Shown: positions 48,499 through 53,066, counted from the first letter of the stretch. The stretch is 64,000 bases of DNA from Deltaproteobacteria bacterium (GCA_040218735.1 JAVJQW010000020.1:1-64000); one strand, 5' to 3'. Numbers and translations: made by a program. The notes: generated by a model not told the origin, from the sequence alone.

Positions 48499-49599
48499 CT
48501 AGGCTGCGGCGGGCGCAGCTTTGTCCGCAGCCTTGGCCTTCACCGGCGCCGCAGCCACCTCGACGGTCTCGGCGCCCCACGTCGCGGGGGCGCCCAGGTC
48601 GACGGGTTCTTCGCTGAGCACCGCTTCCCGCAGGCGGGTCATCAGCACCGGGCGCGCCTGAAGCCACTCCCGCGCCTTCTCCTTCCCCTGGCCCATCTTC
48701 TCCTTCTGGATGGCGTACCAGGCCCCCGATTTCTCGATGAGGTTCTTCTCGACGCCGAGGTCGATCAACTCACCCGCGACGGAGATGCCCTGGCCGTAGA
48801 GGACGTCGAACTCGGCTTCGCGGAAGGGGGGCGCGACCTTGTTCTTCACCACCTTCACCCGAACGCGGTTGCCGACGATCTGGTCGCTGTTCTTCAGCGC
48901 TCCGATCCGTCGGATGTCGAGCCGAACCGACGCGTAGAACTTGAGGGCATTACCACCCGTCGTCGTTTCGGGGCTGCCGAACATGACGCCGATCTTGTGA
49001 CGTGTCTGGTTGATGAAAAGGATGGTCGCCTTCGACCGGGCGGCGTGCCCGGTCAATTTGCGCATCGCCTGGGACATGAGTCGCGCTTGAAGCCCTACGT
49101 GCGCGTCACCCATCTCGCCTTCGATCTCGGCCTTGGGCACGAGCGCCGCGACCGAGTCCACGACGATGAGGTCGACGGTATTGGACCGGATGAGTGTCTC
49201 GACGATCTCGAGCGCCTGCTCCCCGTGGTCCGGTTGTGACACCAGCAGCTGCTCGAGATCGATCCCGAGCGCCTGCGCGTAGCGTGGGTCCAACGCATGC
49301 TCGGCGTCGATGAACGCCGCGACGCCGCCCGTTCTCTGTACGTTGGCGATCGCGTGGAGCGCGACCGTCGTCTTACCCGAGGCCTCCGGCCCGTACACCT
49401 CCACGATTCTCCCCTTGGGTAGTCCACCGACGCCCAGCGCTCGGTCGACGCCGACAGAGCCGGAAGAGATGACCGCGTCGGGCTCGGTGAATCGGTGCCC
49501 TCCGTCGTCTCCCAAGAGCATGATGGCGCCCCGGCCGAACTGTTTTTCGATCTCCGTCATCGCGGCCTTCACGCCGCTCAACTTCTCTTTGAATCCCAT
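48499..49599 (-). CDS. recA: Recombinase RecA (probably the RecA1-type paralog)
   Basis: [70 protein letters not shown] before ATG 49599. Confidence 0.98.
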
Positions 49600-49651
49600 T
49601 TTCTTGCTTGTCTCCTTGGCCGCTGTCTTCGAGTCGGCGCCCACAGGACTT

Positions 49652-49667
49652 CGCAAGGCGTGTGCCG
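49652..49667 (-). promoter_or_regulatory. Sigma54-type -24/-12 promoter of recA
   Basis: Minus strand CGGCACACGCCTTGCG versus consensus TGGCACGNNNNTTGCW; GG-N10-GC spacing exact. Confidence 0.75.
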
Positions 49668-49699
49668 GATGGAGCAGGGGAGTCAGCGCGCAGAAGAAA

Positions 49700-49754
49700 T
49701 CCGATAATCGGACGACGTTCGATTGTCGGTCGGACGCGTTCGACTTTCGGACGA
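49700..49754. promoter_or_regulatory. Upstream palindrome array, copy 1 (candidate enhancer/operator)
   Basis: TCCGATAATCGGA...TTCGATTGTCGGT...TTCGACTTTCGGA; 41/55 ungapped identity to 53012-53066. Confidence 0.7.
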
Positions 49755-49773
49755 ATACGGTAGGGGTTGCTGT

Positions 49774-50397
49774 TCAGTCGAAGACGCAATTCAGAGACAA
49801 CGCACCTTCGAGGCGGCGAAGGTATTCTCTACGTGAAATCAGAGAGGCGCCGAGCTTCATCATGTGCGGCGTGGATTGTTGGATGTCGAGCAACACATAA
49901 CCACGTGCACGCAGACGCTCGACGAGGTGAACTAGTGCAATCTTGCTTGCGTTGGACTCGCGACTGAACATCGACTCGCCCGCAAACAGACCAGAGATTG
50001 CGACGCCGTAGAGCCCTCCGATGAGTACATCGTCGGACCACACCTCGACGCTGTGGGCGTGACCTCTTTGGTGGAGCGCGCAATAAGCGGCTTGAAGCTG
50101 CGGTGTGATCCACGTCGACATTCTTCCTGGTCCCGCCGCCGCGCACGCCTCGATGACATCCGAGAACGCCTCGTCGAAGGTCACCCGGATACCTGGCTTA
50201 CGAAGCGCCTTTCGCAGCGTTCGGTTGATTCGCAACGCCTCGAGATCGAGCACGGCACGAGGATCCGGGCTGAACCAGGTCATCAGATCGTCATCGAAGA
50301 TGGGCCAGGGAAAGATCCCACTTCGGTATGCGAGGACGAGTCGTTCGACCGAAAGATCACCACCGACGGCGACCAAGCCGTCACGGTTCGCACTCAT
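49774..50397 (-). CDS. aat: Leucyl/phenylalanyl-tRNA--protein transferase
   Basis: DGLVAVGGDLS, LAYRSGIFPW, WFSPDPRAVL, HSVEVW, FAGESMFS, ASKIAL. True start probably slightly upstream. Confidence 0.95.
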   Translation of the reverse strand: MSANRDGLVAVGGDLSVERLVLAYRSGIFPWPIFDDDLMTWFSPDPRAVLDLEALRINRTLRKALRKPGIRVTFDEAFSDVIEACAAAGPGRMSTWITPQLQAAYCALHQRGHAHSVEVWSDDVLIGGLYGVAISGLFAGESMFSRESNASKIALVHLVERLRARGYVLLDIQQSTPHMMKLGASLISRREYLRRLEGALSLNCVFD

Positions 50398-50526
50398 CGC
50401 GCTGGGGAATACGAGGCGCTGGGTCAGGATGGCAACGATGACGCCGGTGAGCCTAGTCGATACACGTTACGTTTTCTATCGAATAGAACTTGAAACGAGA
50501 TCTCTTGACACGTAGTAATTCAGGCC

Positions 50527-50877: not shown

Positions 50878-50879
50878 GC

Positions 50880-51422
50880 TCAGACGAGGAGGCGTGCCCC
50901 GTCGTTGGGCACGCCTTCGTGTTCGAGCAACCAGGCCTTCGCGGCCAACCCTCCCCCGTAGCCGGTCAATCGCAGCGTCGACGAAACGACGCGGTGGCAG
51001 GGTACGAACAACGCACAAGGGTTCATTCCATTGGCGTGCCCCGTGGCGCGAAACGCCTCGGGTTTACCTGCGCGTTTGGCAACCTGCGCGTAGGTCGACG
51101 TCGAACCCGGCGCAATCTTCCGAACCGTGCGCCACACCTTCTGCGCGTAGTCGGGACCTTCCAATGCCAGCGGCACCGCACTCAATGCACCCAGGTCACC
51201 GCGGAAATACGCGCGGATCGCCTGCGCCGCGTCGGTGAGTCCCGAGCCCCGGCCGGACCGCGCACCCGGCGCGACCTCGGGCCCTTCACGCGCGAGGCGC
51301 TCCACGACCCGATCCCACCGCGGCTGAAACTCCGCGCTCCAGACGCTCTGATCGAACGTCACGATCCAAAGGGGCCCGACCGGAGTCGTCACCGTCTTCA
51401 TCGCCCAGAGGTTTGCACTCAT
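50880..51422 (-). CDS. ogt: Methylated-DNA--protein-cysteine methyltransferase
   Basis: Active-site VPCHRVV, TYAQVA, LTGYGGGLAAKAWLLEHEG; ATG overlaps the comM stop (ATGA). Confidence 0.93.
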   Translation of the reverse strand: MSANLWAMKTVTTPVGPLWIVTFDQSVWSAEFQPRWDRVVERLAREGPEVAPGARSGRGSGLTDAAQAIRAYFRGDLGALSAVPLALEGPDYAQKVWRTVRKIAPGSTSTYAQVAKRAGKPEAFRATGHANGMNPCALFVPCHRVVSSTLRLTGYGGGLAAKAWLLEHEGVPNDGARLLV

Positions 51423-52951
51423 ACCATCGCTCTCATCGTCGTCGGCGCGAGCCACGTGCTCGGCCGACGGTAACGCATGGCTTCCGCCACGTGGTTTTCA
51501 TCGATTCGTTCCGCGCCGTCGAGATCCGCGATCGATCGGGCGACGCGCAGTCCGCGCTCCCATCCGCGCGCCGACAGGCTCAGCTGCGCCATGCAGGTCT
51601 TCATGAGGGTCCGTGCGCTGCGCGTGAGTGGGGCCTCCCGACGAAGTTGGCGACCGCTCAGCCTCGCGTTGATACCTTGCCGCTCACCGCCGCGCTCTCG
51701 CGCCGCCGCGACCCGTTCACGGATCGCCGAGGAGGGTTCGGAGGCCTCGTCGGTCATCAACGCCTCTGGATCGATCGCAGGCGTTTCGACGATGAGATCG
51801 ATCCGATCCAACAAGGCACCGCTGATCCGACCCGCGTAGCGACTCACTTCGTCCGACGAACATCGACACTGCCCCGTCGCGCTCCCCAGCCAACCACAGG
51901 GGCACGGATTGGCCGCTGCCACCAACATGAACGACGCCGGGAGCCGGACGGTTTGTCGCGCGCGCGCGATGACGACCTCACGATCCTCCATCGGCTGTCG
52001 CAGCGACTCCAAGACGTGCCGCGGTAGCTCCGGCATCTCATCGAGGAACAACACCCCGTGGTGCGCCAGTGAGACTTCACCGGGGCGGATCGGATGCCCG
52101 CCTCCGATCAGACCGGCCTCACTCACCGTGTGGTGAGGCGCGCGGAACGGACGTGCGTCCAACAGTCGGCCCGACCGGAGCGTGAGCCCCGCCGCCGAGT
52201 GAACCTGGGTGACTTCGATCCGCTCCGTGAGCGACAGCGGCGGGAGGATCGTACCCACGCGCCGCGCCAACATCGTCTTGCCCGCGCCGGGGTTCCCGAC
52301 CATCAAGACGTTGTGACCACCGACCGCGGCAATCTCCAGCGCGCGCCGCGCGAGCGTTTGTCCGCGGACCTCGCTGAAGTCACAGGCCTCGTCGTCGTAG
52401 GCCGCCGGTGTCACCTCGGTCGACGGAGGCGGGAGCACCGACTCGCCCTTGAGGTGACCGACCAACGCCTCGAGCGTCGGGCTCGCGACGACGTCGATCC
52501 CCGCGACACTCGCCGCCTCCGCACCGTTGTCGAACGGCACGATGATCTTCGTTCGCCCCGAAGCTTTCGCGAGCGCCGCGATCGACAGGGCGCCGCGCAC
52601 GGCGCGCAGGTGCCCCGACAGCGACAACTCACCAACGATCAGCGCACCTTCCACCGACTCCGGCGGCAGGTGCCCCGCCGCGACGAGCAAACCCACGGCC
52701 ATCGGGAGGTCGAGCGACGCGCCGTCCTTTCTGAGCGCCGCCGGGGCCAGATTCACCGTGATGCGTTTGCTCGGCAGGTGAAGCTCCGCGGAGCGCAAGG
52801 CAGCTTGCACGCGGTAGCGCGCCTCCTTCACCGCGGCGTCGCCCAGGCCGATGATCGAGAAGAACGGTAGGCCCTGCGCGAGCTCGATCTCGACGTCCAC
52901 CGGCCGGGCCTCGACGCCGACGACCGTCGCGGTGCGAATGGAAGCGACCAC
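51419..52951 (-). CDS. comM: ComM/YifB Mg-chelatase-like AAA+ ATPase
   Basis: ITVNLAPA, HNVLMVGNPGAGKTMLA, RPFRAPHHT, PGEVSLAHHGVLFLDE, ANPCPCG, ISGALLDRID. Confidence 0.95.
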   Translation of the reverse strand: MVASIRTATVVGVEARPVDVEIELAQGLPFFSIIGLGDAAVKEARYRVQAALRSAELHLPSKRITVNLAPAALRKDGASLDLPMAVGLLVAAGHLPPESVEGALIVGELSLSGHLRAVRGALSIAALAKASGRTKIIVPFDNGAEAASVAGIDVVASPTLEALVGHLKGESVLPPPSTEVTPAAYDDEACDFSEVRGQTLARRALEIAAVGGHNVLMVGNPGAGKTMLARRVGTILPPLSLTERIEVTQVHSAAGLTLRSGRLLDARPFRAPHHTVSEAGLIGGGHPIRPGEVSLAHHGVLFLDEMPELPRHVLESLRQPMEDREVVIARARQTVRLPASFMLVAAANPCPCGWLGSATGQCRCSSDEVSRYAGRISGALLDRIDLIVETPAIDPEALMTDEASEPSSAIRERVAAARERGGERQGINARLSGRQLRREAPLTRSARTLMKTCMAQLSLSARGWERGLRVARSIADLDGAERIDENHVAEAMRYRRPSTWLAPTTMRAMV

Positions 52952-52964
52952 GGCGCCGTGCAAG

Positions 52965-52980
52965 AGCAAACACGAGGCCA
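52965..52980 (-). promoter_or_regulatory. Sigma54-type -24/-12 promoter of comM-ogt
   Basis: Minus strand TGGCCTCGTGTTTGCT; GG-N10-GC spacing exact. Confidence 0.7.
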
Positions 52981-53011
52981 ACCCTGCGCGCGGATCCGGC
53001 CCGTCGATATC

Positions 53012-53066
53012 TCCGAAAACCGGACGACGTCCGAAATGCGTCCGAAAGCGTTCGATTTTCGAAAGA
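53012..53066. promoter_or_regulatory. Upstream palindrome array, copy 2 (candidate enhancer/operator)
   Basis: TCCGAAAACCGGA...TCCGAAATGCGTC...TTCGATTTTCGAA; aligns ungapped with 49700-49754. Confidence 0.7.

Follow-up and report, generated by a model that had tools for sequence, protein, structure and literature searches.

The recA and comM-ogt units of a Deltaproteobacteria bacterium (GCA_040218735.1, JAVJQW010000020.1:1-64000) share a promoter design in which a sigma-54-type -24/-12 element is preceded by an array of three dyads. Both units lie on the minus strand of the first 64 kb of contig C57, which is the whole stretch of DNA that was analysed and which we call the window. We think it likely that the dyads are the enhancer of one enhancer-binding protein (EBP), that the GG-N10-GC elements are sigma-54 promoters, and that the genes behind them form a LexA-independent recombination regulon. 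The initial annotation of this DNA had proposed such an architecture, and it is supported by phased matches elsewhere in the genome, by the presence of radC among the genes concerned, by conservation in relatives and by a separate LexA box. Binding by an EBP, dependence on sigma-54, the positions of the transcription starts and the signal, which could be DNA damage or another state that demands recombination, are predictions read from the DNA. recA is known from textbooks as a gene of LexA and sigma-70. In this genome an ATP-dependent enhancer switch appears to govern one of its two paralogues together with comM, radC and several nucleases, and the other paralogue retains a LexA box.

Shared dyad arrays and phased -24/-12 elements

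Each array consists of three dyads that follow the pattern GTYCGR-WWW-YCGRAC and are spaced, from centre to centre, by 21 and 18 bp. The recA array spans 49751-49700, with dyad centres at 49745, 49724 and 49706, and the comM array spans 53063-53012, with centres at 53057, 53036 and 53018 (Table 1). The 60-nt stretches that include the arrays are identical at 42 of 60 positions. When the host genome (G000; 11.6 Mb, 68.8% GC, 70 contigs) was scanned with a position weight matrix (PWM), the comM array scored 93.6 bits and the recA array 91.6, the next match 50.9 and the background a mean of -62 with a standard deviation of 13. The palindrome array that the two promoters had been said to share is therefore real, its two copies being by far the top matches in the genome. 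Both -24/-12 elements lie where the annotation had placed them, with exact GG-N10-GC spacing.

Elements were scored as matches to TGGCACG-N4-TTGCW, which has 12 specified positions, usually with a cut-off of at least 9; the sigma-54 consensus is quoted as yTGGCACGrNNNTTGCw in the available part of PMC12754779. Dyads were scored with a symmetrised PWM built from 36 pattern matches, and those of at least 19 bits were called strong, giving a strong set of 41 sites in 27 clusters over the whole of G000. Phasing distances were measured from the nearest dyad centre to the first G of GG. Genes were called from Pfam profiles plus open reading frames (ORFs), and for regulon members from NCBIfam as well.

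Table 1. Promoter features and genes of the recA and comM-ogt units, their neighbours in the window, and the second recA and lexA elsewhere in the genome
Feature	Position	Strand	Details
recA (paralogue A of two)	48499..49599	-	Pfam RecA, E 6e-134
recA Shine-Dalgarno AAGGAG	49612..49617	-	12 nt before ATG 49599; read from sequence
recA -24/-12 element CGGCACACGCCTTGCG	49652..49667	-	GG-N10-GC, 9/12 against consensus
recA proximal dyad TCCGATTATCGGA	49700..49712	-	PWM 30.3 bits; centre 40 bp upstream of first G of GG
recA middle dyad, degenerate	49718..49730	-	PWM 12.2 bits; 21 bp from distal centre, 18 bp from proximal
recA distal dyad TCCGAAAGTCGAA	49739..49751	-	PWM 20.0 bits; aligns with comM distal dyad
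Leu/Phe-tRNA protein transferase gene (aat)	49774-50397	-	Pfam/ORF
ogt (O6-methylguanine methyltransferase)	50880..51455	-	Pfam DNA_binding_1, E 2.8e-30
comM (Mg-chelatase-like AAA+ helicase), near-leaderless	51419..52951	-	Pfam Mg_chelatase, ChlI, Mg_chelatase_C
comM -24/-12 element TGGCCTCGTGTTTGCT	52965..52980	-	GG-N10-GC, 9/12 against consensus
comM proximal dyad TCCGGTTTTCGGA	53012..53024	-	PWM 22.9 bits; centre 39 bp upstream of GG
comM middle dyad, degenerate, right half TCGGA retained	53030..53042	-	Aligned with recA array; under PWM threshold; 21/18-bp spacing
comM distal dyad TTCGAAAATCGAA	53051..53063	-	PWM 29.1 bits
M23 peptidase gene	53075-54049	-	Pfam/ORF
recA paralogue B	C58:157205-158311		63% identical to paralogue A
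lexA	C45:103108-103770		Promoter carries GTACACAGGTGTTCAGCT

The same architecture recurs in the genome, as had been anticipated, and its phasing is fixed. An element scoring at least 9 of 12 lies within 120 bp downstream of 13 of the 27 strong dyad clusters, against a chance expectation of 0.033 per cluster, and the distance from dyad to GG falls into two classes, 38-40 bp (n = 8) and 47-50 bp (n = 5), the longer being one helical turn more. One of the 13 clusters has an additional element at 90 bp. With relaxed thresholds, the genome-wide histogram of distances peaks at 38-40 bp (9 counts) and at 50 bp (5 counts), all other bins holding 0-3 counts. If a -12 other than GC is permitted, three more promoters appear at 39 bp (on contigs C50, C55 and C21), and an Rpn-like gene on C60 has the same layout by eye, with a degenerate proximal dyad. 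As in the upstream activating sequence of an EBP, several dyads lie upstream of -24 and are phased with each other and with the promoter. To judge from these sequences, the promoter design is that of a regulon and not a coincidence. Sites at C44:1036, C68:9721 and C69:12942 were dropped, as they appear to be intragenic within a repeated element.

Transcription is predicted to start near 49641 for recA and near 52954 for comM, the latter 3 nt before the start codon. In one detail the earlier description was corrected: the genes start at ATG 49599 (recA) and GTG 52951 (comM), and not at TTG, the codon with which both ORFs begin. The N-terminus of ComM is conserved among orthologues. Since the ogt ORF overlaps the 3' end of comM, the two genes probably form one operon.

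Genes behind the promoters and their conservation

The genes behind composite promoters, that is, dyads followed by an element, are recA, comM-ogt, radC, three genes for YhgA/Rpn-like PD-(D/E)XK proteins and one for a Uma2 nuclease. Further members encode a trypsin-like protease, a peptidoglycan-binding protein, several proteins without a family match, and a protein that resembles REP-associated tyrosine transposases (RayT-like) without reaching the cut-off of that family; an IS91-like gene and a 98-codon ORF on C9, described below, also belong to the list, with a weaker -12. Before an Exo_endo_phos gene, site and element are both present but out of phase. A Ser/Thr kinase gene on C21 was rejected as a member, because the in-phase element points the other way, to a plus-strand gene.

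This gene list bears on what kind of response the promoters might serve. Competence regulons of Haemophilus, Bacillus and Streptococcus include comM, radC and recA, and the late recombination genes recA, comM and radC share the promoter design here. The genes of DNA uptake and protection do not: within 350 bp upstream of dprA, comEC and ssb we found no element of at least 9, and the best dyads scored -1.9, 3.0 and 4.7 bits, respectively. Among the genes at which hits were to count in favour of competence, radC carries the design and these three do not, and the absence of sites at dprA and comEC weakens a competence reading; nucleases and transposase-like genes are found in their place. A damage response of the kind that would include uvr, dnaE2 or imuAB had also been considered, and none of these genes follows a composite promoter in G000. 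Weak dyad-like cores before comEC, dprA and lexA were rejected as below any useful score.

Three dyad sites are described here for their own layout. At C61:393720-393768, three near-perfect 18-bp dyad units stand in tandem where a response-regulator gene and a UPF0102 (YraN-like) gene converge with their 3' ends; the 3' side of comEC is 2 kb away, and no promoter element is near. On C9, identical 32-bit dyads with identical flanks occur 6.6 kb apart, at 622130 and 628745, each 50 bp before CGGCACGGCGCTCGCG, an element with a weaker -12; the second copy is followed by an IS91-like transposase gene and the first by a 98-codon ORF without a Pfam match, and the two copies may represent an enhancer-bearing unit that has been duplicated or is mobile. 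At C8:99162-99194 a dyad pair lies between divergent genes. The in-phase element (38 bp) faces the trypsin-like protease gene, and a second strong element, TGGCCCGGCCGTTGCT, 141 bp away, faces the gene of a 405-aa protein with no significant Pfam match and two sub-threshold EF-hand hits, so that this enhancer may work bidirectionally.

Orthologous recA and comM promoters retain the element and mostly retain the dyads, as the proposed architecture had implied. Within the host's taxonomic family, an element of at least 9 precedes 13 of 16 recA loci and dyads of at least 12 bits precede 11 of 16; at 12 recA loci outside the family there are no dyads and only three elements. For comM (counts include G000), 16 of 19 family loci have an element whose G is at -27 to -30 relative to the start codon; the other three have a weaker match in the same place, and dyads of at least 11 bits are present in 11 of 19. 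In nearly all these genomes recA and comM are neighbouring genes. Among the relatives' promoters examined, the downstream gene starts 13-15 nt after TTGC in 6 of 7 and 7 nt after it in the other.

The exact composite pattern has 9 matches in G000 and is present in 7 of 19 other family genomes. Elsewhere in the phylum, where 281 genomes of 35 families were scanned, only 3 have it; a reversed pattern, used as a control, gave 0 matches. The pattern is thus nearly confined to the host family. A scan of named public genomes yielded at least 115 loci with the composite pattern, and among those listed it precedes radC at three loci and recA, comM and an Rpn-like gene at one locus each. Among the matches listed, those that repeat come from metagenome-assembled genomes labelled Haliangium, Kofleriaceae or Myxococcales. 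One further public match linked to comM (L204) was not counted, since it faces the 3' end of the gene. Matches to the RecA protein in the named genomes were all at most 66% identical and scattered over phyla, and did not help in comparing promoters.

Sigma-54, LexA and alternative explanations

The genome encodes a single RpoN (one Sigma54_DBD match, 223.9 bits) and about 90 EBPs (103 matches to PF00158, 90 of them at 99 bits or more). In the window no EBP gene is present, as first reported; the only PF00158 match on the contig is the AAA+ domain of ComM itself (31.7 bits). The promoters have the doublet spacing of sigma-54 promoters, in a genome with rpoN and EBP genes, and the element is kept at orthologous promoters. 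At 11 of 12 canonical promoters, the ATG or GTG codon of a long ORF lies 12-14 nt after the 16-mer. The exception is recA, with a predicted leader of 42 nt that contains AAGGAG. If the C of GC is at -12, such start codons fall at about +3 to +5. The same arrangement is seen genome-wide, where, of 95 elements scoring at least 11, 44 are followed by a start codon at 12-14 nt, as are 91 of the 340 scoring 10; the enrichment is 2.5-fold at score 9 and nil at score 6 (1379 observed, about 1300 expected). This excess over chance implies well over a hundred near-leaderless sigma-54 transcripts, for which window positions 52965-52951, C66:78390 and C64:10207 may serve as examples. It also points to a habit of the whole genome, that of sigma-54-type promoters feeding near-leaderless mRNAs, and in the literature searched we found no description of sigma-54 promoters that yield leaderless mRNAs.

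This very closeness to start codons could mean that GG-N10-GC is not a sigma-54 element but the motif of another sigma factor or a signal linked to start codons, with the dyads acting on ordinary promoters, and no sigma-54 regulon of such a layout was found described in the literature searched. We hold this to be very unlikely, because the motif is the canonical consensus, the enrichment climbs with match quality, one rpoN and some 90 EBP genes require many such promoters, and a start about 12 nt past GC itself accounts for the position of the codons. A somewhat better alternative, though still an unlikely one, accepts the sigma-54 promoters and takes the dyads as operators of a dimeric regulator that is not an EBP (an XRE/CI-type protein, another repressor or a co-regulator), the EBP binding elsewhere or not binding DNA at all. 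In its favour, clusters without promoters exist, and a CI-repressor-like helix-turn-helix (HTH) gene (C45:80682-81518) has a 24.7-bit site 102 bp upstream; moreover, XRE regulators bind palindromes, and one of them, DdiA, co-regulates the damage response of Myxococcus according to the accessible part of PMC12288472. However, the dyads are strictly phased, at 39 or 50 bp from GG, and stand in threes at intervals of two turns, which suits the assembly of a hexamer and not occlusion; no dyad overlaps a -24/-12 element, and the recA and comM arrays revealed no recurrent upstream motif other than the dyads.

LexA, for its part, has a different conserved box. The GTACACAGGTGTTCAGCT box, which we take to resemble the LexA box of Myxococcus, is conserved before lexA in 5 loci, and its reverse complement precedes recA paralogue B. 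Upstream of recA paralogue A and comM the conserved box is absent; there is only an isolated GTTCAG hexamer before recA (reverse complement, spanning the aat stop codon), with the other half of the box missing. Dyads are absent from the promoters of lexA and recA paralogue B, the best score in the lexA promoter being 1.4 bits. The proposal that recA and comM are independent of LexA is supported. A LexA box at one recA and the enhancer design at the other indicate that the two copies are wired differently, and, to judge from the upstream regions, one paralogue appears to be under LexA and the other under the enhancer. On these grounds it is scarcely credible that LexA itself binds the dyads and that we are looking at an SOS regulon with an unusual box, even though recA is a classical LexA target and one dyad cluster lies about 500 bp from lexA.

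Several observations weigh against the enhancer reading that we prefer. Under the strict rule, 14 of the 27 strong clusters have no in-phase element, and two among the strongest (C45:104317-104350 and C61:393720-393768) lie between convergent gene ends with no promoter apparent. Dyads fall below threshold at 5 of 16 recA orthologues and 8 of 19 comM loci. Because 435 elements score at least 10 genome-wide, a single match means little. The functions of the members are also mixed, with a secreted-looking protease, a peptidoglycan-binding protein and several proteins without a family match among them.

If an EBP does bind the dyads, one candidate is the FHA-AAA+-HTH protein encoded at C45:104438-105811 (Pfam FHA, Sigma54_activat and AAA lid), which might be switched by Ser/Thr phosphorylation through its FHA domain. 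Its gene is the only EBP gene less than 1 kb from a strong cluster, C45:104317-104350 lying just past its stop codon, and the gene order EBP, zinc-ribbon gene, lexA is conserved in 6 of 13 orthologue loci (G000 included). The composite pattern is present in 7 of 12 other family genomes whose best match to this protein is at least 50% identical and in 0 of 7 without such a match, a comparison among kin that are not independent. Against this, some 90 EBP genes and 27 clusters would give about 0.6 adjacencies by chance, the dyads next to the gene are present only in G000, and its own promoter has no site (best 2.3 bits). Two relatives, G014 and G018, have dyads and an element before comM, yet their best matches to the FHA protein are reciprocal best hits of other G000 EBPs, and G007 also has no reciprocal orthologue. 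We therefore regard the FHA-domain EBP as a weak candidate, and it is rather doubtful that it is the activator. No EBP or lexA gene was found in the fetched loci (up to 4.5 kb) around the relatives' best recA matches, comM loci and other composite promoters. The gene between lexA and the FHA protein (C45:103896-104303; L012:2896-3303, plus strand) is divergent from lexA and encodes a 135-aa protein with four CxxC pairs (treble-clef zinc-finger hits).

Proposed mechanism, known systems and further observations

In NtrC/NorR-type enhancers of Proteobacteria, two or three dyads on one DNA face nucleate an AAA+ hexamer that activates the sigma-54 holoenzyme. The mechanism that we propose is of this kind. 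Three dimers would occupy the three dyads, about two helical turns apart, and would come together on a single DNA face as the active hexamer, with its centre some 63 bp (about 74 bp at certain promoters) before the start; the hexamer would then spend ATP to open the complex of the sigma-54 holoenzyme. One such enhancer-promoter module may drive at least 12 canonical and 3-4 relaxed promoters in G000, with a conserved core of recA (one of the two paralogues), comM(-ogt), radC and the Rpn-like nucleases, and the canonical members except recA would be made as near-leaderless mRNAs. The NtrC/NorR systems are like the present design in that dyad sites nucleate a hexamer; unlike it, they serve nitrogen or nitric oxide metabolism, and their sites are usually further upstream, often with bending by IHF.

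PexR, an EBP of Myxococcus, is the closest solved analogue. At the PexR-dependent katB and ahpC promoters of Myxococcus xanthus, three tandem interrupted palindromes precede a sigma-54 promoter that was validated by 5' rapid amplification of cDNA ends and by mutation of -24/-12, and the system is conserved in related genera (PMC12754779, as far as its text was available); such an arrangement is therefore a proven one. The two designs differ in the motif (CACCG-n6-CGGTG for PexR, GTYCGR-W3-YCGRAC here) and in the targets, which are those of peroxide stress for PexR, a protein with a GAF sensor domain, and recombination and nuclease genes here. A further difference is that here the dyads keep a fixed distance of 39 or 50 bp from GG and that the transcripts would be near-leaderless.

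Other LexA-independent circuits are alike in what they control and differ in mechanism. PafBC is a WYL-domain activator that works with the housekeeping sigma factor and has no AAA+ enhancer mechanism. In mycobacteria it activates DNA-repair genes independently of LexA, beside a smaller LexA regulon (introduction of PMC12288472, in the part available), and in this it resembles the circuit proposed here, from which it differs in the AAA+ enhancer that we propose. According to the same partial source, M. xanthus has LexA-dependent and LexA-independent damage responses, with the XRE protein DdiA as one identified regulator; the regulators of LexA-independent responses, which are documented, are mostly undefined, and the introduction speaks of one or more transcription factors still to be identified. 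Like the SOS response and the response involving DdiA, the present design would control recA and repair genes, but SOS acts on sigma-70-type promoters through the cleavage of a repressor, and DdiA belongs to the XRE proteins (PMC12288472, in part), whereas here we propose an activator and sigma-54. Of 115 genomes sampled in the largest other family, only 1 has the composite motif, and we therefore do not equate the present design with the Myxococcus system. For a LexA-independent recombination response in myxobacteria, it provides a concrete cis-element, a gene list and predicted starts.

Among the members of the proposed regulon, radC presumably corresponds to COG2003. Predicted sigma-54 promoters were enriched before COG2003 and two other repair COGs in a computational survey (PMC12316311, available in part); in its main text 'recA' is absent, and the matches to 'comm' shown from it do not name comM. 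In the literature searched we came across no account of recA under sigma-54 control, alone or jointly with comM and radC. The mechanism is canonical in kind; what is new, as far as our searches reach, is the set of targets and the division of control between the two recA paralogues.

A broader interpretation, which we put forward as a tentative possibility and consider improbable as a whole, is that this family of Myxococcota has a second recombination programme that is driven by an activator and independent of LexA. In such a programme a dedicated recA paralogue, comM-ogt, radC and domesticated transposase-like nucleases (three Rpn-like, one RayT-like, one IS91-like and one Uma2) would be fired together by one EBP at sigma-54 promoters, mostly as leaderless transcripts, and the EBP might be controlled by phospho-threonine and be wired to lexA by its neighbourhood. 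If so, these bacteria would possess a switchable state of hyper-recombination or DNA processing, separate from both SOS and classical competence.

Some minor observations concern the window itself. A metatranscriptome contig from a public run matches 49519-49640 and continues with 29 unlike letters, and three other contigs fall inside comM; assembled contigs do not reveal a transcription start and the library may hold DNA, so we draw no conclusion from them or from the promoter stretches that they leave uncovered. Between aat and ogt, on the plus strand at 50527-50877, lies an ORF for a Lys/Pro-rich protein of 116 aa, with zero matches in a Pfam search and an AT-rich stretch upstream; the protein contains two GRPPGSKNKK repeats, which we take to be AT-hook-like.

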